From an uncultured Eubacteriales bacterium (lineage in GTDB: Bacteria; Bacillota; Clostridia; Oscillospirales; Acutalibacteraceae): DNA of 25,704 nucleotides. Below are positions 1-8,552 of this stretch, piece after piece (position 1 is the stretch's first letter; each line of letters starts with the position of its first letter). Both the position numbers and the translations under genes were made by a program. Where the stretch lies: the NCBI GenBank assembly GCA_964471035.1, contig CAYYFY010000001.1:1-25704 (forward strand). Direction: 5' to 3'. The notes beneath the pieces were generated by a model, which did not search any database, was not told where the DNA came from, and saw nothing but the letters and a program-made list of their open reading frames with translations.

Positions 1-5
1 TCACA

Positions 6-38
6 GAACCGTACGTGCGGTTTTCCCGCATACGGCTC
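6..38 (-). ncRNA. Group II intron catalytic domain V
   Basis: Minus strand GAGCCGTATGCGGGAAAACCGCACGTACGGTTC: canonical hairpin with AGC triad and AC bulge. Confidence 0.95.
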
Positions 39-39
39 T

Positions 40-1320
40 TCAAACCAACTTTGGTTTCCAGTTCCAGATGTCTTTCGTTAGGTGTGGTTTTTTCACATAG
101 AAATCCCATATCCTTTGGAACTTATCCCATTTCATGCTCCGTTTTTGATGTCTGCGGTTAAGCGTTCGATAGGTCGTATACCTTACGTATATCCAAAAGT
201 TTTCAACCATATGAAAATTGCCACTGATACCATAGTAGTTACAATGCCCTTGAAGCGATAACTGAATGTGTTTCATAGTTTCACTGACCGGCTTGTGCAT
301 GTTTTCATGCAACCACGCCTTGGCACTCTGTTTCTTTGATTTCAATTTCTTCTTGCTTGTTCGCACTCCCAGCCGATATTTTCCTTCTCTGGTCTGCGTA
401 TTGAAGAATGTAAACCCCAAGAAATCAAAGTCCTCTTTTGTCCCTTTGAACCGTCCAATTGGAAGAATGCGCGTTTTGTCCTCCGCTACTTCCAGCCCAA
501 ACTTGCCGAGCCGTGCTATCAAGGCTTCCATAACCTCCAGCGCTTCGTTTTCATACTGAAACATCAGCAGAAAATCGTCTGCGTACCGCACATAATACAC
601 TTCACCTTTGCACTGTTTCCGCAGCACCTTTTCGTACCACAAATCAAGCACATAGTGCAGATACACATTCGCCAGCACCGGCGAAATCTGTCCACCCTGC
701 GGTGTCCCTTTGTCGCTTTCTTTCCGTTCTGCTCCCTCCATTATGCCCGCGATGAGAAATCGCTTCACATAACGCAGGAAATTCCTGTCCGCGATGTCGT
801 TCTCAAGAAATTTCATCAGCCAATCATGGTCTACATTATCAAAGAACCCTTTGATGTCGGCTTCCAGCACATAGTTGACCTTCTTTGTCATAATGGTCTG
901 ATTGATTTCCCGTACCACCATGTGCGCATTCCGTTCGGGTCTGAATCCGTAGGAGCAATCCAGAAACCGCTCCTCGTAGATGTCATTCAGCAATCCAGCC
1001 ATGACGCTCTGTACCAGTCTGTCTTCGTATGCGGGTATCCCCAGCGGACGCATTTTTCCGTTAGCCTTTGGAATGTATGCCCTGCGTACGGGTTGCGGCT
1101 TGTAGCTGAATCGCTTCATTCGGGCGATTAAATCCGCCACGTTCTCGTCCAGCTTCTCCCCGTACTCCGCCTTAGTCATTCCATCTATGCCGACCGCCTT
1201 GTTTTGTACCTGCTTTCTGTGTGCTTCCTTGACACTTGTCGCATTGACACGATTCATCAGTGTTTCCAGCTTCGCATAGGTTCTGGACTGATACCTTATT
1301 TCCTTCAGTTCTTGTTCCAC
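40..1320 (-). CDS. ltrA: Group II intron reverse transcriptase/maturase (RT + X domain, no HNH endonuclease), about 426 aa
   Basis: Motifs AVGIDG, YIPKANGKMRPLGIP, SYGFRP, DIKGFFD, GTPQGGQISPVLAN, YVRYADDF, FDFLGF, GHCNYYG. ORF track starts at 1410, but the GTG at 1320 follows AGGAGG (1331-1336, 10-nt spacer) and 1410 lies in intron domain III. Stop TGA at 40-42 abuts domain V. Confidence 0.93.
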   Translation of the reverse strand: MEQELKEIRYQSRTYAKLETLMNRVNATSVKEAHRKQVQNKAVGIDGMTKAEYGEKLDENVADLIARMKRFSYKPQPVRRAYIPKANGKMRPLGIPAYEDRLVQSVMAGLLNDIYEERFLDCSYGFRPERNAHMVVREINQTIMTKKVNYVLEADIKGFFDNVDHDWLMKFLENDIADRNFLRYVKRFLIAGIMEGAERKESDKGTPQGGQISPVLANVYLHYVLDLWYEKVLRKQCKGEVYYVRYADDFLLMFQYENEALEVMEALIARLGKFGLEVAEDKTRILPIGRFKGTKEDFDFLGFTFFNTQTREGKYRLGVRTSKKKLKSKKQSAKAWLHENMHKPVSETMKHIQLSLQGHCNYYGISGNFHMVENFWIYVRYTTYRTLNRRHQKRSMKWDKFQRIWDFYVKKPHLTKDIWNWKPKLV

Positions 1321-1629
1321 GTACCCGTAACCTCCTGTGTTACCCGTGCTTTCCTTTGGAAAACGCTGATTTGTTGCCCCCTTCGCTCCACCGGCTTTCA
1401 CCGGCTTCACCGCTACTATGAGGCAATCCGACTTCTGACAAGCCTTCGTTTCGCGCTTAGTTTACAATACCTTGCTTGAATCTACCGCTCTCATTGCGGA
1501 TTTCACCGCTTTGCGGAGCCTGTCAGACCTCCCAGGTATGCGTGTATTACTCTTGTGCGCTCGCCACGCTCTATGGACCCCGACGGATTCTCACCAACCT
1601 CGCGTTTACGGTCGGTTCTTTCTGCCTGC

Positions 1630-1645
1630 TGTGAAGGAGAACACA
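1630..1645 (-). other. Intron EBS1 stem-loop (loop UUCUCCUU; EBS1 = CUCCUU at 1634-1639) pairing with IBS1 AAGGAG at 1838-1843
   Basis: Minus strand GCC-GA-TGTG-[TTCTCCTT]-CACA-GCA-GGC in the 3' part of domain I. Perfect 6/6 complement of the six exon bases just upstream of GTGCG. Confidence 0.85.
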
Positions 1646-1845
1646 TCGGCTTCCGTTCTTTATGTCTTACGGGGCTGAATCGCTTCACGCTTTCGCATTG
1701 CGGCTCTCGCACTCCCTGTCCTACGCTTAAACCTCACCTCACGGCTTCGGCTCCAAGGACTCAGTACCGACTGGTCGCTAACCTTTGTCGGGTCAGGTCT
1801 CTCACCCAACTATATTACACGCACCGAACTGGCGCACCTCCTTTG

Positions 1846-1893
1846 TTATTAATACCAAGCACTCGACGTGGAACGAGATCGTCAGATTGATAA
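1846..1893. other. att-like pseudo-palindrome containing a second copy of the rlmD 3' tail (candidate attR or displaced native rlmD end)
   Basis: 19-bp imperfect inverted arms (1846-1864 and 1875-1893, 12/19) around a 10-bp spacer. 1843-1870 matches rlmD 3201-3228 at 21/28 nt. Minus strand reads H-V-E-C-L-V-L-I-T-K-E versus rlmD H-M-E-C-V-V-L-M-S-R-V. Confidence 0.75.
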
Positions 1894-1901
1894 TAAAACC
1901 C

Positions 1902-2021
1902 TACGAACCGCTTGTCCGGCGGTTGATTGAAAAGGTCACCGTTTACAGTGGCAAACAAGTTGCCGCGGACAAATTCATCGTGGAATTTAAGTCCGGCGTG
2001 ACGGTGGAGGTGAAGGAATAA
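1902..2021 (+). pseudogene. C-terminal fragment of a large serine recombinase (site-specific integrase)
   Basis: YEPLVRRLIEKVTVY...DKFIVEFKSGVTVEVKE* resembles the typical C-terminus of Clostridia ICE/IME serine recombinases as I recall it. No catalytic N-terminus or start codon; it begins just after the att-like site. Confidence 0.75.
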
Positions 2022-2029
2022 GAATGATA

Positions 2030-2073
2030 AAAGCAAAGTCGTTTGGGGATTTATATATTCTGGACTTTGCTTT
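2030..2073. terminator. Putative bidirectional terminator between the convergent recombinase relic and methyltransferase
   Basis: Perfect 11-bp inverted repeat AAAGCAAAGTC / GACTTTGCTTT with a 22-nt spacer and A/T-rich flanks. Confidence 0.5.
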
Positions 2074-2114
2074 ATTTTATATTAAATTTTCGCTAATATT
2101 AGAATTTTTCGGTA

Positions 2115-2867
2115 TTACTTCTTTATCGCCTTTATAACAAAACACGTTTCTAAAAAATCAGCAGCGTCGCTATTGTTGTCATAACCGTCTTCAAAAAATC
2201 CCGTTATGCAAAAACCACTCCTAGTTAGTTCGCCTATATAATTATCTAAAGTATGTCCATATTCAATCCAATCCCCTTGATTATCATGCTCATAGGATTT
2301 ATATGGTAGTTTATTGCACGCTATATAATAGTCCCCATCCTGAATATATTCACACAAATAATTTGCTGGATTAGGGGCACACAATATGAAACTACCGCCT
2401 TTTTTTAGGATACGACAACATTCTTGATAAACAGGTGTGACATTCGGGACATAGAACAAAGAGGGTGGATTTATAATAATATCAAAACACTCATCGGAAA
2501 ATCTCGACATATCGCACATATTTCCCTGCTCTATTTTAATTGAGAGATTTTCTTTTTCAACGACAGCTTTATCACGAAGCAGCATATTTTTTGATAGGTC
2601 TAACACCGTTACATTAGCGCCCGCAGCTGCGCATAGAGGAGCTTGTTGTCCCCCGGCTCCCGCAAGGCAGAGTAGTTTGATATCCTTCATTTTTTCCGGG
2701 AACCAACTTCTCGGTAACAGCTTATTACCAGAAATACTGATTTCGAAAATGCCATTCCTTGCTTTTTCGATTTCTGCATGGGTTACAGGGATTGACCATG
2801 AAACATTTTGCTCCACAAGATTATCAATGTTTTTTTCTACTTTTTCAAATATGTTACTATCATTCAT
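2115..2867 (-). CDS. Class I SAM-dependent methyltransferase, 250 aa
   Basis: LLCLAGAGGQQ (motif I variant), VTVLDLS, IEQGNMCDMS, FDIII, ILKKGG. SD AAGGAG at 2878-2883. Visibly AT-rich compared with the flanks. Confidence 0.88.
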   Translation of the reverse strand: MNDSNIFEKVEKNIDNLVEQNVSWSIPVTHAEIEKARNGIFEISISGNKLLPRSWFPEKMKDIKLLCLAGAGGQQAPLCAAAGANVTVLDLSKNMLLRDKAVVEKENLSIKIEQGNMCDMSRFSDECFDIIINPPSLFYVPNVTPVYQECCRILKKGGSFILCAPNPANYLCEYIQDGDYYIACNKLPYKSYEHDNQGDWIEYGHTLDNYIGELTRSGFCITGFFEDGYDNNSDAADFLETCFVIKAIKK

Positions 2868-2990
2868 CGTATAATATCTCCTTAATAAATTTTTTAATCG
2901 TTGTAATAGCGGTATACGTTACAACAACATCCAACCTGTTCACACACACCGGCGAAAAAAAACTTCCAAGTCGTCCACACGAGAACCTCT

Positions 2991-3058
2991 AACATCTATC
3001 CTGTATACTCGTCGAAGGGTATTATCAATCCTGTGCACTCGCGAAGCGGTGACATCAA
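2991..3058 (+). repeat. Two degenerate 30-bp tandem units plus the start of a third, resembling att arms
   Basis: AACATCTATCCTGTATACTCGTCGAAGGGT / ATTATCAATCCTGTGCACTCGCGAAGCGGT / GACATCAA. Similar to ACATCAATACCACGCACTC at 3204-3222. Confidence 0.7.
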
Positions 3059-3189
3059 AATCGTTCTGTCACAAGGAAAAACGCTTCTTTGGACTTGTTC
3101 CCACGGGGCAAAATTATTTGATTTTCAGACTGTGGTTTTCGACGTGAAAAAGCGAAAATCCCTTTGTTTCAAGGCGTTTTTCACCCTCT

Positions 3190-4539
3190 TCAATTTACCC
3201 TTGACATCAATACCACGCACTCCATATGCGGTGTGCGGGGGAACATATCCACCGGAGCGGCGCGCTTGACCGTATAACCCAGCTCCGTGAGGATTGCGCA
3301 GTCGCGGGCGAGCGTTGCCGGGTCACAGGAGACGTAGACAATTTTTTCGGGGTTCATGGCGGCTATGGTTTCGAGCAGTTCTTTGTCGCAGCCCTTTCTG
3401 GGCGGGTCTAAAATGACGGTGTCGGGCGTTGTGCCCTCCTCCTCCAGTGTTTTTGCCGCTACTGCGGCGTCGGCGCAGAGGAAGCGGGCGTTTTTGATGC
3501 CATTTATGGCGGCGTTTTCTAAGGCGTCCCTGACGGCGTCGGGGACGATCTCGACGCCGATGAGTTGTTTGACGCCGCCTGCCATCGACAGACCGATGGT
3601 GCCGGCGCCGCAGTAGAGGTCTAAAAGGGTGTCGGTCGGTTTAGGGGCGGCAAACGCGGCGGCTGTTTTATATAGCCGTTCGGCTTGTTCGTGATTGACC
3701 TGATAAAACGAGAGCGGCGAGAGCTTGATGCGCAGACCGCACAGCTCGTCGGTGATAAAGCCGTCGCCGTACAAAGTTTTACAGCGCGCGCCGAGCACGA
3801 CGTTGGTGTCGTCGGTATTGGTGTTTAATAGGAGCGTCTTAAAGCCGCTTAAGTCTTTCAGCGTTTCGAGTAAACTCTGACCGTGCAAAAGGTCCTTGCC
3901 GTTTATGACGACGCAGACCATCAGCTCGCCCGTGGCAAACGCCTTACGCAGGTAGAGGTGCCGGATAAGCCCTCTGCCTGTCGTTTCGTCATAAACGCTG
4001 ACGTTGTGTTTCTTTATGAATGCTTTCAGCAGCTTAGCCGCCTGTGCAAATTCGGGCGGTTGGAGGGCGCAGCCGCATGAGTCGATCACGCGGTGGCTGC
4101 GCGGCGCGTAGAAGCCGATCTTGACCTCGTTGTTCTCAACGGCGACGGGGTATTGCGCCTTGTTGCGGTAGCCGTCTATGCGCTCTGCGCCGAGGATCGG
4201 CTCAAGGGGGACGTCCATATGGGAAAGACGCCTGAACGCTTCTTTAACGCGTTTTTCCTTATGCGCAAGCTCCGCGTCATAGGAGATGTGCCTAAAAGCG
4301 CAGCCGCCGCACTGTGAAAAGACGGGGCAATCCGGTTTTATCCTGTCCTTTGACGGCGCGGCGATTTCCATACATTTACCAATCGCGTAATGTGGTTTAA
4401 TTTTGATGATACGGCAACGAATTGTGTCGCCTATGGCGGTGTTCGGAACGAATACGGCAAGACCGTCAACCCGTCCGACGCCGTTGCCCTCGGAGGTATA
4501 ATCTTCTATAATTAAGGGTATTTCGTCATTTTTTTGCAT
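3190..4539 (-). CDS. rlmD: 23S rRNA (uracil-1939-C5)-methyltransferase RlmD (RumA/TrmA family, TRAM domain)
   Basis: TRAM N-terminus, Fe-S motif CPVFSQCGGC, LDLYCGAGTIG, ILDPPRKG, YVSCDPATLARD, DMFPRT. Confidence 0.95.
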   Translation of the reverse strand: MQKNDEIPLIIEDYTSEGNGVGRVDGLAVFVPNTAIGDTIRCRIIKIKPHYAIGKCMEIAAPSKDRIKPDCPVFSQCGGCAFRHISYDAELAHKEKRVKEAFRRLSHMDVPLEPILGAERIDGYRNKAQYPVAVENNEVKIGFYAPRSHRVIDSCGCALQPPEFAQAAKLLKAFIKKHNVSVYDETTGRGLIRHLYLRKAFATGELMVCVVINGKDLLHGQSLLETLKDLSGFKTLLLNTNTDDTNVVLGARCKTLYGDGFITDELCGLRIKLSPLSFYQVNHEQAERLYKTAAAFAAPKPTDTLLDLYCGAGTIGLSMAGGVKQLIGVEIVPDAVRDALENAAINGIKNARFLCADAAVAAKTLEEEGTTPDTVILDPPRKGCDKELLETIAAMNPEKIVYVSCDPATLARDCAILTELGYTVKRAAPVDMFPRTPHMECVVLMSRVN

Positions 4540-5122
4540 CGGTCATCTCCCTGACGGTTTCTTTGTACTCGTCATATGTCATAAAGGCGTTTATCAGCTG
4601 TAACAGCGAATTTGCCGACAGCCTTGACGGCAGGTCAAGCCGTTTCAGAAGCGCCTGCCTGCGCCTTTGGCTCTCGGCTTTGCCGCTGAGTCCGTCCTCG
4701 TAAAAATCGGTCTTTGTCACGTGCTTACGCGGCTCACGGGTCTCCTCACAGCACACGCCCGCCTGCCGCAGCGAGGTAGTCAGGACAATCTGTGAGATGC
4801 CCTCGACGCCGAGCTTGCCCTCTTTAGACGGCGCGGTCTTGCGCTGCTCCTTGCCTAAGACATCGGGGATATAGGCGTGTACGACCGTCTCGGGCGGGAC
4901 GAGACTGCCGATGAACGAACGAATCTTGAAACCGGCGGCGTCGCTGTCGGTTAAAATGAGCAGCCCCCTTGACAGCGCGAGGCGGCGAATGAGATTTTGT
5001 TTTTCCTTGTCGTTGAATACGCCAAAGCCGCCGGTCTCGAGGATGACCCCGTCGATGACCGAGGAAAGGCGTATTTTATCGTATTTTCCCTCAACGATGA
5101 TGATGCGGTCTGTCTTGATCAT
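4526..5122 (-). CDS. rnmV: Ribonuclease M5-like Toprim protein (DUF4093 C-terminus)
   Basis: Toprim motifs IIVEGKYD and ILTDSDAAG, C-terminal GKLGVEG; overlaps the rlmD start by 14 bp. Confidence 0.8.
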   Translation of the reverse strand: MIKTDRIIIVEGKYDKIRLSSVIDGVILETGGFGVFNDKEKQNLIRRLALSRGLLILTDSDAAGFKIRSFIGSLVPPETVVHAYIPDVLGKEQRKTAPSKEGKLGVEGISQIVLTTSLRQAGVCCEETREPRKHVTKTDFYEDGLSGKAESQRRRQALLKRLDLPSRLSANSLLQLINAFMTYDEYKETVREMTDAKK

Positions 5123-5129
5123 ATTAAAA

Positions 5130-5259
5130 TTTATGTCCTTTCGGGCTTCATGCCCAAAAGGACATAAAACCTTATAAAAAACGCGGTTTCGCGCACGAAA
5201 TGCGGGTCAGACCGACCGACCCGCAAGCGTTTTTGCGGATTGAAAGTGTAACTTTCAAT
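5130..5259. other. Highly structured intergenic segment (five stems)
   Basis: Hairpin 5130-5168; stem 5177-5184/5227-5234 enclosing hairpins 5187-5200 and 5201-5225; hairpin 5239-5259. Confidence 0.65.
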
Positions 5260-6342
5260 TTAAATCCTTAGAAGATTGATAATCAGGGTCTCCAGAATGA
5301 CCCGCTTGTCGGTGCCGGTGGATTTTAAGTCGGTATCGGCTTTCGAGATGTACAGGATTGCCTCGCGCAGCTGGTCGATTGAATATTTACGCGACGAGGC
5401 GGCTGCGTTTTCGAGCATAAACATCTTGTTTTTCTTATAGACGGGATAGTCCGCTGCGACCGCGTCGCATTTCATGCCGCTCTGTACGGCGGCTTTGACG
5501 CGGAGCATATCCACATACGGTCCGGCTAAAACGGCCAAAAGCTTTATAGGCTCCTCGCGCTGCTTTAACAGCGCATCGAGGTTATAAAGCGCCTCGTCGG
5601 CCTTTTTATCGATGATCTGCTTTGCCAGGCTGAAAATTCTTGCCTGCGGGCTTACGGTGACGGCGCTGTCGATGTCGGCGCGCGTTATCTTTCCGCTTTT
5701 TTTATACGCGCACACCTTATCGATCTCGTTGCGCAGCGTGCCCAATTCGTCGCCGGCGATATTGATCATATAGAGGGCGTCGGTTTTTTCAAGGGTACAG
5801 CCTCTTTTTTCCGCTCCCGTGCAAAGCTGCTTGACAAGCTCGCCTGTCGCAAGCCTGTCCAGCTTTATAACCGTGCCGTATTTTTCAAAGGTCTTGACGA
5901 TTTTGATCCATTTCGCGTTTTTTTCATCCACGGTCACGGCATCCATCCAGAAAACGAGCACCGTGCTTTCCGGAATATCGGAAATGATCTCGATAAGCGT
6001 TTCAAACCGCCCGCTGTCGGGGAGGACTTGTGCTTGTTCCTCCTCCTCGTCTTTTTGTTTGGGCAGCAGGTCGATGAGATTCATATCGTGGACGACCGTA
6101 CAGGCGAATTCGCCCATCATCGGCAGGGAGGAAACAGAGTCGGAAAGCTCGTCGAACGTGACGGTCTTCCCGTCAAACCGATGTAGATTGAACGCCTCAA
6201 ACTCCTTTTCGACTAATCTTTGCGGGATAAAGGAAGCGTAATGCTGCTTTACATAATCCTCGCTGCCGTACAAAAAATAGAGGCGGTCGGGCGTTTTCTC
6301 CCTCAGTTGTTTTTTCAGTTGGTTTTCGTCGATGCGTCCCAC
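5260..6342 (-). CDS. holA: DNA polymerase III subunit delta
   Basis: LYFLYGSEDY, FNLHRFDGK, LRNEIDK-type motifs. GTG start with SD AAAGGAG; conserved position after comEC. Confidence 0.9.
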   Translation of the reverse strand: MGRIDENQLKKQLREKTPDRLYFLYGSEDYVKQHYASFIPQRLVEKEFEAFNLHRFDGKTVTFDELSDSVSSLPMMGEFACTVVHDMNLIDLLPKQKDEEEEQAQVLPDSGRFETLIEIISDIPESTVLVFWMDAVTVDEKNAKWIKIVKTFEKYGTVIKLDRLATGELVKQLCTGAEKRGCTLEKTDALYMINIAGDELGTLRNEIDKVCAYKKSGKITRADIDSAVTVSPQARIFSLAKQIIDKKADEALYNLDALLKQREEPIKLLAVLAGPYVDMLRVKAAVQSGMKCDAVAADYPVYKKNKMFMLENAAASSRKYSIDQLREAILYISKADTDLKSTGTDKRVILETLIINLLRI

Positions 6343-8552
6343 CGCGATGCTCCTTTTTCAATCAATTCACAAGTGCCGTCAATAGCTGTATACCATACGT
6401 TTTCGGTCAGATACAGGGCTTTGGTATAATATTTTGTTCCGGATTTGCTGAATCCTCCGGTGATGACGATCCGTTTCGGAACACAGTGCTGTAGGTTGAG
6501 CGGCAGACCGCCGGAACAGATCAGCGCGTCGAATGTCCCGAACGATGCCGTCATGACCTTCATATCGTTTTCAGCCGACAGGGAAACAAGGTATCGTCTG
6601 CCGCCTGAGTCAATTATAACACATTTCGCGGCGTCTGTATCGTTATAGTATAAATTTATTTCGTTCCATAGGAAATACCGCGCCGTGGGACAGACCTCCA
6701 CGGTCGTTCCGAATAAAGCGGTATTTTCACGGTATACGGCGGCAGCCGTGAAAACCGTTTTTGGCGCGTAGGTCTCTACAAGCGTCTTGTAGCTTTCGGC
6801 ACAAAAGCTGCCGGGTATGACGAGCAGCAGGTCAAGGTCGGTCGTCGGAAGAGCGGGGACGCTGCCCGCTACAGCTCTCTCAAAGCCCGCGCTGTCACGC
6901 GGACAGGCAATCAGCGCGTAGTGGCTGCCGCTCTGCAGTACGATTACCGGCGTACCGGCGGCTTTCAGTACGTGTACGCGTATGTTTTTATAAGAGGGCA
7001 GCAGCGCGCCGATGTTTCCGGCGACAAAAAACAAAAGGCAGAGTATGGATACCGCCGCGAGCGGCAGGCGCGTTTTTCTGCGTATCCATATCACCCACGC
7101 CGCCAGCATTAAAAGCAGCGTCGATACAAACCAGAACGCCCAGACAGTTTCATCGACGGGCAAAGCGGCGTACCGTAAGGAGCCGAGCTTATTAACGCAG
7201 TCGAGCACAAGCCCCGAAAACAGATTGCACAGGGCAAACCAGAGGTTGGCGACGGGTTTTAGCAGGCTTACATAGGAAAGAAGCACGCCCGTGCCGCCGA
7301 ACACCGTAATCAGAGACGCTAAGCTCATGACCGCGAGATTCGTCACCGGCGCGATGAGCGAGACGCGCCCGAACGCCTCCACCATGACCGGCAGCGTAAA
7401 AATAAAGGCGGTCAGCGTGATGATGACGATGTCGCCGGTGTAGCGGACAAAGCGTTTTATGGGCACAAAACGCAATGACGCCGTTTTCGCCGCGAAGCCG
7501 CTCATCAGCGCCTGTCCTAAACTCACGATGCCCAGCGTCGCGGTGACCGAAAGCTGAAAGCCTATTGACAGCACGGCAAACGGATTGACGCAGGTAATCG
7601 CGCAAACCGCTAAGCCCAGCGAGTTGAGCGCGTCGCCGCGCCTTTTAAAAAACGGCGCGCACAGGATGACGGCAAGCATCGCCGAGGCGCGTAAAATCGA
7701 CGGGCTAAAGCCCGTAAGCGCCGAAAAGAACACGAGAAATCCCATGGAAAGAGTATTGGCTAGCCTGCCTCCCAAGCCGAAAACCGTCAAAAAGGCGATG
7801 ATAAACGCCGTCCACAGCGACACGTTGAAGCCCGATACCGCGAGCAGGTGCGCCGCACCGCTATTGTTGAACGCCGCGGCTGTCTTTGCGGAGATGTAGC
7901 CGGTATCGCCCATCACCATGGCGATGACTACACCCGCGCGGTCGCCGCTCAAATAGGACTGCGCCGTCTCGATGATGTTTTCACGCAGCTTCAGTATATA
8001 CCAGAACGGCGTTTTCGAACAGGAGAAGAGCACCTGCGGCGTATCCTGTGCGTAAGCCGCCAGATAAATTTTACGCGCCAAAAAACTTTCTGAAATATCA
8101 CCTTTCTCGTTTTTGGGAACAAAAACAGCCGCGTCGTTGACCGAAATGCAGTCAAAATATGTACACTCGAGCGGCTCTTCGGTATAATACAGGAGCTTTT
8201 GCTTTGTAAACTCCTCACCGATGGAAAACGTTTTGATCTCGTAGCCGTAGCCGTTGTCGTATGTGTACGGCAAAGAGACGACCTTGCCCGTAAAAGCCGT
8301 CGCTCCGTCGAAGCGCGCCGCCGGCATATACGAAAACCGCCAGAACAGCAAGAAAAGTACCGCCGACAGCAGGACGGCGCCTGCGGCAAGCGGTAATTCA
8401 AAAACAGATCTTAGCCTTTTAGCGACAATATAGATAATTAGTGCCACCACAGAAGCGCCCAAAGCGGCATACGCCGCAACAAAGCCGAGCTTACAGCACA
8501 AAAACAGAACGGCGGCGAATGAAAAACCGAATACGCACATCGGTCTCGCCAA
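6315..8552 (-). CDS. comEC: ComEC/Rec2 DNA-uptake channel with a degenerate C-terminal metallo-beta-lactamase-like domain
   Basis: Many TM segments, HLLAVSGFNV, PSILRASAM, SIGFQLSVTATLGI, NLAVMSL. TTG start with GAGGTGA SD; comEC-holA synteny. Confidence 0.88.
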   Translation of the reverse strand: MARPMCVFGFSFAAVLFLCCKLGFVAAYAALGASVVALIIYIVAKRLRSVFELPLAAGAVLLSAVLFLLFWRFSYMPAARFDGATAFTGKVVSLPYTYDNGYGYEIKTFSIGEEFTKQKLLYYTEEPLECTYFDCISVNDAAVFVPKNEKGDISESFLARKIYLAAYAQDTPQVLFSCSKTPFWYILKLRENIIETAQSYLSGDRAGVVIAMVMGDTGYISAKTAAAFNNSGAAHLLAVSGFNVSLWTAFIIAFLTVFGLGGRLANTLSMGFLVFFSALTGFSPSILRASAMLAVILCAPFFKRRGDALNSLGLAVCAITCVNPFAVLSIGFQLSVTATLGIVSLGQALMSGFAAKTASLRFVPIKRFVRYTGDIVIITLTAFIFTLPVMVEAFGRVSLIAPVTNLAVMSLASLITVFGGTGVLLSYVSLLKPVANLWFALCNLFSGLVLDCVNKLGSLRYAALPVDETVWAFWFVSTLLLMLAAWVIWIRRKTRLPLAAVSILCLLFFVAGNIGALLPSYKNIRVHVLKAAGTPVIVLQSGSHYALIACPRDSAGFERAVAGSVPALPTTDLDLLLVIPGSFCAESYKTLVETYAPKTVFTAAAVYRENTALFGTTVEVCPTARYFLWNEINLYYNDTDAAKCVIIDSGGRRYLVSLSAENDMKVMTASFGTFDALICSGGLPLNLQHCVPKRIVITGGFSKSGTKYYTKALYLTENVWYTAIDGTCELIEKGASRWDASTKTN

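Follow-up and report, generated by a model that had tools for sequence, protein, structure and literature searches.

The 3′ end of the gene for an RNA uracil methyltransferase, annotated as rum, rumA or rlmD, is a well-known target of mobile elements. Phi-m46.1 integrates at the 3′ end of rum through an 18-bp core, GCATCACGTGGAGTGTGT, which encodes H-H-V-E-C-V, and the site has been termed a hotspot for varied elements (PMC4288039). [quoted passage not shown] Here we describe the rlmD locus of an uncultured Eubacteriales bacterium (assembly GCA_964471035.1, contig CAYYFY010000001.1, positions 1–25,704, the whole of which is referred to as the window). A 1.36-kb AT-rich stretch past rlmD is probably the residual right end of a prophage with a serine integrase, both of whose attachment junctions have been retained. 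Sequence comparison establishes how this relic is built, that both junctions and the right arm are homologous to many related loci, and what the family targets. The original prediction, made from the window alone, that the rlmD 3′ end is an integration hotspot is borne out by the first three of the studies above together with 22 related loci; the relic is an ordinary instance of that hotspot and a decayed element of known type. It provides a small and clean case of turnover at the site, in which the phage is gone while its replacement tail, one cargo gene and both junctions persist, so that a core rRNA-modification gene would now permanently terminate in phage DNA.

Comparison with Described Systems

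Prophages of the Phi-m46.1 and phi-SsU type have the same target as the element in the window, the H-V-E-C codons of an RNA uracil methyltransferase gene (PMC4288039), and as here are temperate phages with cargo genes near their ends and a phage-supplied replacement tail. The large serine recombinase (LSR) of the Streptococcus phage phi-SsuFJNP3_rum, whose record opens with the rum gene, is akin to those of the clostridial family described below (67% identical to the enzyme of the intact relative L085). The arrangement differs in that the recombinase genes of phi-SsuFJNP3_rum lie directly after rum and read away from it, whereas those of the clostridial family read towards rlmD with a cargo slot of 1–5 kb in between. 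In the proposed comparison with the sites of other rlmD-targeting LSRs, the Phi-m46.1 core was matched, and the half-site sequences of these prophages differ from those of the clostridial family. They are also phages, whereas the window holds a 1.36-kb relic without one.

The vanG and ICE-r elements of Streptococcus and Roseburia likewise combine the rumA 3′ hotspot with a serine recombinase and an element-supplied rumA end, and their 2-bp target, imperfect terminal inverted repeats and tandem insertions are further likenesses (PMC4120198). In these elements, however, the rumA body is fused to an open reading frame of ~115 codons and the recombinase at the far end reads into the 11 displaced rumA codons (PMC4120198), whereas the window has an 11-codon tail and a recombinase remnant that is proximal to rlmD, on the opposite strand and convergent with it; the vanG/ICE-r arrangement was not found. 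Five other relatives (L003, L021, L029, L042 and L058) do have rlmD fused in frame to an extension of ~100 codons (..KPDTYIDITVDMDELD...FKMI and a stop), which is the left end of vanG/ICE-r-type elements (PMC4120198), and therefore at least two element families compete for the site in Clostridia.

Two further systems bear on the small size of the relic. Cis-mobilizable elements (CIMEs) are deletion derivatives of ICESt1/ICESt3 (Pavlovic 2004 and Bellanger 2011, as cited in PMC13651849). As they are presented in that citing paper, they resemble the window island in being short, deletion-derived, bounded by both att junctions, without recombination genes and situated at an accretion-prone hotspot; they differ in that they depend on tyrosine integrases, derive from ICEs and have been shown to be mobilised, whereas the window island is of the serine type and known from sequence alone. 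The island is indeed bounded by both att junctions and contains neither a recombinase nor transfer genes, as a CIME-like element would. The Dehalobacter island likewise lies in a Firmicutes chromosome, with a variable region of multiple recombinases and decayed elements next to the rumA 3′ end, but it measures 100–400 kb (PMC11578063) against the 1.36 kb visible in the window before the contig ends.

Proximal Junction and the End of rlmD

The rlmD (rumA) gene for the 23S rRNA U1939 methyltransferase lies on the minus strand at 3190–4539 and is full length (TIGR00479, 416.8 bits against a cut-off of 183.55; Pfam TRAM and tRNA_U5-meth_tr), with its C-terminal tail replaced. Its 3′ end reads ...PRTPHMECVVLMSRVN followed by the stop codon, and the protein ends in MECVVLMSRVN. 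Two half-sites meet in this region. The codons ..VDMFPRTP (3229–3260, minus strand) are continuous with the rlmD body and are host-specific in each locus in which an element is joined to rlmD, and we refer to them as the host half-site or B arm. The codons for MECVVLMSRVN and the stop (3190–3226, minus strand) form the element-derived P′ half-site, recognised by its identity to element arms in other loci. Positions 3194–3216 are 100% identical in the unrelated genomes L083, L123, L130 and L159 and have 1–5 mismatches in ~60 loci, and in the unrelated genomes the half-site, from the His codon outward, always lies downstream of an LSR of ~522 aa. The same P′ arm is present in L229, whose rlmD is 80% identical, and in a strain from metagenome run X5 with a 97.5% identical rlmD.

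Behind the P′ arm, the conserved element right arm (2894–3193) comprises repeats of approximately TTCGCGAGTGSACAGGATWGATGT (minus-strand reading) and the rlmD-like GGACTTGTTCCCACGGGG at 3092–3109. A blastn search with 2894–3255 found matches in ~40 LSR loci, the architecture of the right arm is the same behind rlmD in L230 and L231, and the canonical phage right arm reads ..AGAGTGAGTGTG.. before its repeats. Because 3194–3216 is identical in unrelated genomes and is backed by this conserved arm, we read the last 11 codons of rlmD as phage DNA and the proximal junction (3190–3260) as attL, in which the rlmD body is joined to a P′ arm. The same origin had been proposed for the present C-terminus before any comparison was made.

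One feature of this junction distinguishes it from its counterparts. At 3225–3226 the motif in the window rlmD is H-M-E rather than the H-V-E of relatives and of the family consensus (CATATG compared with CACGTG in the X5 strain), a change that affects an otherwise invariant motif directly beside the putative crossover.

Distal Junction and the Second Tail

A second rlmD-type tail, CACGTCGAGTGCTTGGTATTAATAACAAAGGAG, which encodes HVECLVLITKE, is located at 1838–1870 on the minus strand (hereafter the Y arm) and serves both as the far half-site of the distal junction and as the 5′ exon of a group II intron. The duplicated tail was already recognised by the original prediction as lying ~1.36 kb away in the same orientation. 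On the minus strand the two tails are identical at 21/28 nt over the span considered there and at 23/33 nt overall, with a separation of 1358 bp between their His codons. Nowhere else in the window are there 19/28 or more matches, and no site in 40 shuffles reached 21/28.

On its other side the Y arm abuts the X arm (1871–1894, plus strand), a phage-type half-site, GAACGAGATCGTCAGATTGAT, and a match to the X arms of L083, L085 and further loci; it is retained to about +21/+27, and past ATTGAT its sequence departs from that of the canonical arm. When the two arms of this distal junction are compared outward, starting at the CA of the His codon, 16/30 positions agree, and at +16..+24 ATTGATAAT is opposite ATTAATAAC. 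For the pseudo-palindrome reported earlier, a repeat-finding tool detected only small overlapping palindromes, and the dyad symmetry is weak when taken alone, becoming convincing solely through comparison with relatives.

That comparison, on which our naming of the half-sites rests, covers ~60 loci with an element arm beside rlmD, 55 genomic X-arm loci and 6 viral contigs. The family attP, written in the sense of the window plus strand, is right arm–TTTACCCTTGACATCAATACCAC–CGTCTCAACG–TG–GAACGATAGCATCAGATTGATGTC–left arm, and both of its arms carry ATTGATGTC at +16..+24 from a centre on the TG that corresponds to the CA of the rlmD His codon. Canonical X arms are found in genomes (55) and in viral contigs (6), and attP occurs inside viral contigs. 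In the window the His codon of H-(V/M)-E-C forms the centre of both junctions, as expected of elements targeting rum or rlmD, and the junctions have the form of hybrids round a common central dinucleotide, the P′ and X arms sharing ATTGATGTC at +16..+24 around TG/CA. Crossover would have taken place at this dinucleotide, the plus-strand TG and, on the minus strand, the CA within the His codon, at 3227–3228 in the proximal junction and 1869–1870 in the distal one. We base the assignment on how serine integrases generally cleave and on the dyad centre in the family's attP, midway between GACATCAAT and ATTGATGTC. The proximal dinucleotide falls within the published 18-bp Phi-m46.1 core (PMC4288039).

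The 55 genomic X arms have three kinds of partner: a canonical P′ arm (27), a diverse, native-looking rlmD tail (~17) or a short look-alike of the rlmD body (~12). We interpret the first kind as attP or an element-to-element junction and the second as true attR. The complete pattern is seen in L210, where rlmD is followed by attL, 1.9 kb of cargo, attR and a native tail (HVETVSLLTRTQL and a stop). By this comparison the distal junction of the window (1838–1894), an X arm joined to an rlmD-type tail, would be of the attR type, as had been predicted.

Less certain is the accompanying claim that the second tail is the displaced native end of rlmD, which we regard as probable. Over the 31 nt past the crossover the Y arm has 6 mismatches to the nearest element tail joined to rlmD, and then 9 and 11 to the next. 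Where a phage arm is confirmed behind an X-adjacent tail, the tail has 0–5 mismatches in 32/33 cases, whereas native-type tails have 4–13, and the distance of the Y arm (6/31) thus fits the native range better, favouring a native tail. The main alternative is a tandem array, in which a further family member, situated to the left of the window, would have supplied the second tail as its P′ replacement tail; the distal junction would then be P′|X and the relic the rlmD-proximal member. Precedents exist: P′ arms are the partners of 27 of the 55 X arms; the arrangement in L083 is precisely this one (P′|X, LSR remnant, methyltransferase gene and a further P′); arrays also occur in L226, L123 and L085/L204, the L083 and L226 relics being flanked by an element-to-element junction; and tandem arrays at rum have been published (PMC4120198, PMC13651849). 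By eye, the Y arm also agrees with a P′ variant at 14/16 positions. We nevertheless consider a tandem unlikely, since the Y arm is further from the nearest rlmD-joined P′ arm than are 32 of the 33 confirmed ones and native tails used as attB can be equally P′-like (L173, for example, at 5/31). The exact Y arm is absent from viral contigs save for one unrelated chance match, and the prior for arrays is reduced, since many P′|X junctions are probably just attP in phage genomes that are free or unintegrated.

A resemblance unrelated to integration, arising by chance or from coding constraint, as in an intron homing site or a stray fragment, is extremely improbable. The tail is short (33 nt) and fits the exon-binding sequences of the intron, relatives of which sit at unrelated TATAAT-N-GGAGG sites. 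Against this, its 21/28 identity recurs nowhere else in the window or in the 40 shuffles, it lies 30 nt from the LSR remnant, and at the His codon it meets, with the register exactly kept, an X arm conserved at such junctions in more than 55 loci.

Recombinase Remnant and Its Phage Family

Between the two tails, as noted originally, there is a recombinase remnant, although it amounts to no more than the last 40 of ~522 codons. It occupies 1902–2021 on the plus strand, includes the stop codon and an insert of 8 codons (SGKQVAAD), and was identified by tblastn, in an alignment that covers residues 491–522 of the 522-aa L085 LSR. No Pfam domain was detected in the remnant, and the window contains no LSR gene with Resolvase, Recombinase or zinc-ribbon domains. 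We aligned 80 related loci, in which the remnant matches the C-terminus of LSRs of ~522 aa. The intact enzymes have Resolvase, Recombinase and Zn_ribbon_recom domains and match the integrase family phrog_95 (497 bits); that of L085 is 87% identical to the LSR of a human-gut phage. The genes are mostly present as two paralogues and a fragment and adjoin a phage amidase (L085). The LSR gene and rlmD are convergent, 1–5 kb apart, in 22 of the 80 loci, an arrangement that the remnant repeats in the window.

[quoted passage not shown] The serine recombinase stands, but the element family looks like a temperate phage because of the lysin beside the LSR genes, the match to phrog_95, the rum-integrating Streptococcus prophages and the presence of attP in viral contigs. 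No phage structural, lysis or replication genes were found between 1838 and 3228; the relatives have them beside their LSR genes.

The 8-codon insert (1955–1978 in the window) marks a sub-lineage in which SGKQVAAD or TASADAAD replaces ED, with further members in L081, L083, L102, L109, L115, P0121 and P0122. The X arm of this sub-lineage was absent from viral contigs. Truncation of the recombinase recurs in the family and its position is clustered: 11 of ~25 truncated copies (L083, L088, L101, L104, L105, L115, L132, L140, L150, L158 and the window, at 1902) start at residues 475–491 of 522 with unrelated DNA upstream. We looked for an att-like site within the recombinase gene as the cause of truncation at this position and found none. 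Remnants of this kind account for many “integrase” open reading frames of 48–76 aa in a large protein collection, the 48-aa length being due to the use of an internal Met by gene callers.

Cargo and Deletion History

The island has a G+C content of 0.32–0.36, compared with ~0.58 in rlmD, in agreement with the AT-rich cargo reported earlier. That cargo is one intact gene for a class I SAM-dependent methyltransferase of 250 aa (2115–2867, minus strand; Pfam Methyltransf_11/25/31), located between the integrase remnant and the attachment site. No NCBIfam family matched it above cut-off, and its PHROGs and PADLOC matches were generic only. A hairpin at 2030–2080, AAAGCAAAGTC...GGACTTTGCTTT followed by a T run, was identified by eye between the LSR remnant and the methyltransferase gene and is likely a two-way terminator. 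A hairpin is found in the same position in relatives; a consensus terminator scan did not call the one in the window, which we attribute to its long loop.

In intact relatives the order is recombinase genes, terminator, 1–5 kb of variable cargo, right arm, P′ and rlmD. In the window the X arm occupies the place of the first ~485 recombinase codons and of all other phage DNA, and a single deletion with one end at about +21/+27 in the X arm and the other at the recombinase 3′ end would account for this structure. The deletion in L210 is nearly identical and stops shortly after the recombinase terminator. Both junctions of the window are spanned by independent contigs from four wastewater metagenomes, which confirms its structure.

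We propose that a temperate phage with an LSR targeting the His-Val-Glu codons near the rlmD 3′ end once integrated at this locus, exchanging DNA at or beside the CA of the His codon, a position suggested by the dyad centre of the family attP. The rlmD body would thereby have been joined to a phage-supplied tail (attL, 3190–3260), which keeps the gene intact, and the native tail would have moved to the far end of the prophage (attR, 1838–1894). A later deletion would have taken nearly the whole prophage, from just inside the far phage arm to about codon 485 of the recombinase, leaving ~1.36 kb that consists of 40 recombinase codons and the terminator, the methyltransferase gene and the repeat-rich right arm. 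Then or earlier, a group II intron would have retrohomed into the displaced tail, which has matching intron-binding sites (IBS1/IBS2). Having no recombinase, the relic would be movable only if a related phage supplied an integrase and a directionality factor.

Such mobilisation is the basis of a different reading, in which the island is a live cassette, CIME-like, that retains working attL and attR and is excised and re-integrated in trans by related phages. Small islands with both junctions do recur (the window; L210, 1.9 kb and without an LSR; L083, 1.7 kb; L226, 3.2 kb), the cargo gene remains intact, neither core half-site is missing, and all close relatives carry phages of the family that could supply the enzymes. 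The cargo of the islands differs, however. The window and L083 methyltransferases are only 25% identical, on which ground we rejected these two islands as copies of one cassette, L210 has other genes, and the cargo of the window is unrelated in detail to that of either. This speaks for independent decay and gives no sign of one cassette spreading. The truncation points also differ, as independent decay predicts, the X arm of the window is shortened or divergent past about +21, and reads gave no excision joint, an absence that carries little weight at a depth of ~4x and with the runs in the form of contigs. We therefore regard a live cassette as distinctly unlikely.

Several observations weigh against a decayed prophage with a displaced native tail. 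Eight metagenome runs contained the filled form only and no joint skipping 1871–3226, and no empty site was found in reads or in any relative examined, the same depth and the same form of the runs applying to both searches. All the close rlmD relatives (97.5%, 80%, 63% and 62% identical; X5, L229, L230 and L231) have a P′ arm and a phage right arm, with two of the contigs ending there, so there is no empty site to align and the native tail of the lineage is not readable from them. Neither the host arm nor the Y arm was found when metagenome contigs were scanned for exact patterns. In register the Y arm is like element tails, and its outer motif (ATTAATAAC) resembles theirs, so that they cannot be distinguished by anatomy; the intron and the end of the contig hide the sequence past the second tail. 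As the proximal junction has CATATG where relatives have CACGTG or CACGTT, at least one change after integration, or an unusual element allele, must be assumed. Lastly, the search for a full-length recombinase with the 8-codon insert found only remnants of 48–76 aa.

The rlmD site seems to be occupied throughout the clade. In the X5 strain a canonical phage arm follows rlmD, and no assembled copy of the distal junction was found for this strain. The most similar rlmD in species-representative genomes is 56% identical, and the large protein collection has one at 80% and the next at ~63%; elements of this one family occupy all of them. Look-ups of the exact rlmD and methyltransferase proteins returned no other contig.

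Attachment Sites across the Family

The comparison set maps the attachment site of a widespread clostridial integrase family through ~60 P′ arms, 55 X arms and ~17 native tails. The expectation that the window would itself furnish a natural attB/attP set did not hold, as it has no recombinase and the phage arm of its attR is kept to about +21/+27 only; a practical set of attB, attP and integrase should start from intact relatives such as L085, whose canonical attP lies at 7900–7975, L123 or L230.

Three features of the family are without explanation, and none is specific to the window: repeats in the arms, look-alikes of the rlmD arm on X arms, and the clustering of truncations at residues 475–491. 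Repeat arrays are present in both element arms (window 2950–3110, L230 7440–7600, L231 3150–3270 and L085 7985–8080). The right arm has 3–4 copies of approximately TTCGCGAGTGSACAGGATWGATGT together with GGACTTGTTCCCACGGGG (D-L-F-P-R), and the left arm, beside the X arm in L085, has 3 copies of TTCGCGGGRAYAGGTCA, the reverse complement of which reads V-D-L-F-P-R. In the ~12 X arms joined to a look-alike (L178, L179, L204, L207, L209, L213, L215, L217, L223 and L233 among them), ~25 nt resembling the rlmD arm extend exactly up to the central TG and read D-M-F-P-x-T-x on the same strand, with a polarity opposite to that of the rlmD host arm and no rlmD gene behind. A simple attP × attB exchange gives no account of these junctions. 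In Acetanaerobacterium elongatum, a look-alike|X junction and a P′|X junction bracket an element of ~56 kb. We rejected the possibility that a palindromic ACGT core permits integration in either orientation, as the dyad centre is the non-palindromic CA/TG and the junctions between B fragments and X arms do not contain ACG.

The arm repeats and half-site copies, the look-alike|X fusions and the recurrence of relics reduced to cargo and both junctions, with deletion ends clustered at the last ~45 recombinase codons, lead to a speculative reading, in our judgement a poor prospect, in which the attachment region is larger than the minimal site of ~50 bp. The additional sequences might be accessory sites that steer direction or target choice in a two-recombinase system, or the relics might be maintained as cassettes moved in trans. 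Large serine integrases are not known to require accessory sites.

Group II Intron and Genomic Context

The original prediction overlooked a group II intron that abuts the second tail (1–1837, minus strand). Its 3′ side is cut by the window edge, domain V lying at 40..1, and its 5′ end, GTGCGCC, begins at 1837. Rfam models for the D1–D4 fold (group-II-D1D4-6, RF02005, 1567–1802, 113.5 bits) and domain V (Intron_gpII, RF00029, 1–40, 42.8 bits) both match, the 5′ end is of the GUGYG type (GTGCG at 1837), and an open reading frame at 40–1410 on the minus strand encodes a reverse transcriptase/maturase of 456 aa (Pfam RVT_1 and GIIM; NCBIfam TIGR04416, 377 bits against a cut-off of 300). Since no base separates GTGCGCC from the final codon of the second tail, that tail is the 5′ exon of the intron. 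The exon motifs AAGGAG and GTATTA are complementary to intron nt 199–204 and 289–294, respectively, and a fortuitous target in the tail would explain why the intron lies here.

The first 24 nt are common to twelve related introns from other genomes, all of which follow a TATAAT-like box, 6–10 nt and GGAGG; loose read ends have the same pattern. The target of these relatives (L162–L172) thus resembles a −10 box and ribosome-binding site, which is unusual and loosely defined. The contig begins within this intron, which is multi-copy, with a depth at 1–167 of 2–5x that of the flanks in runs X1–X4, from the source wastewater samples, and 1802–1837, over its 5′ end, reaching ~800x in X6.

On the 5′ side of rlmD, the context at 4526–8552 is conserved with L229, the relative with an 80% identical rlmD, and comprises a Toprim/DUF4093 gene, holA (DNA polymerase III delta) and comEC, all on the same strand as rlmD; therefore the right side of the junction is ordinary core genome.

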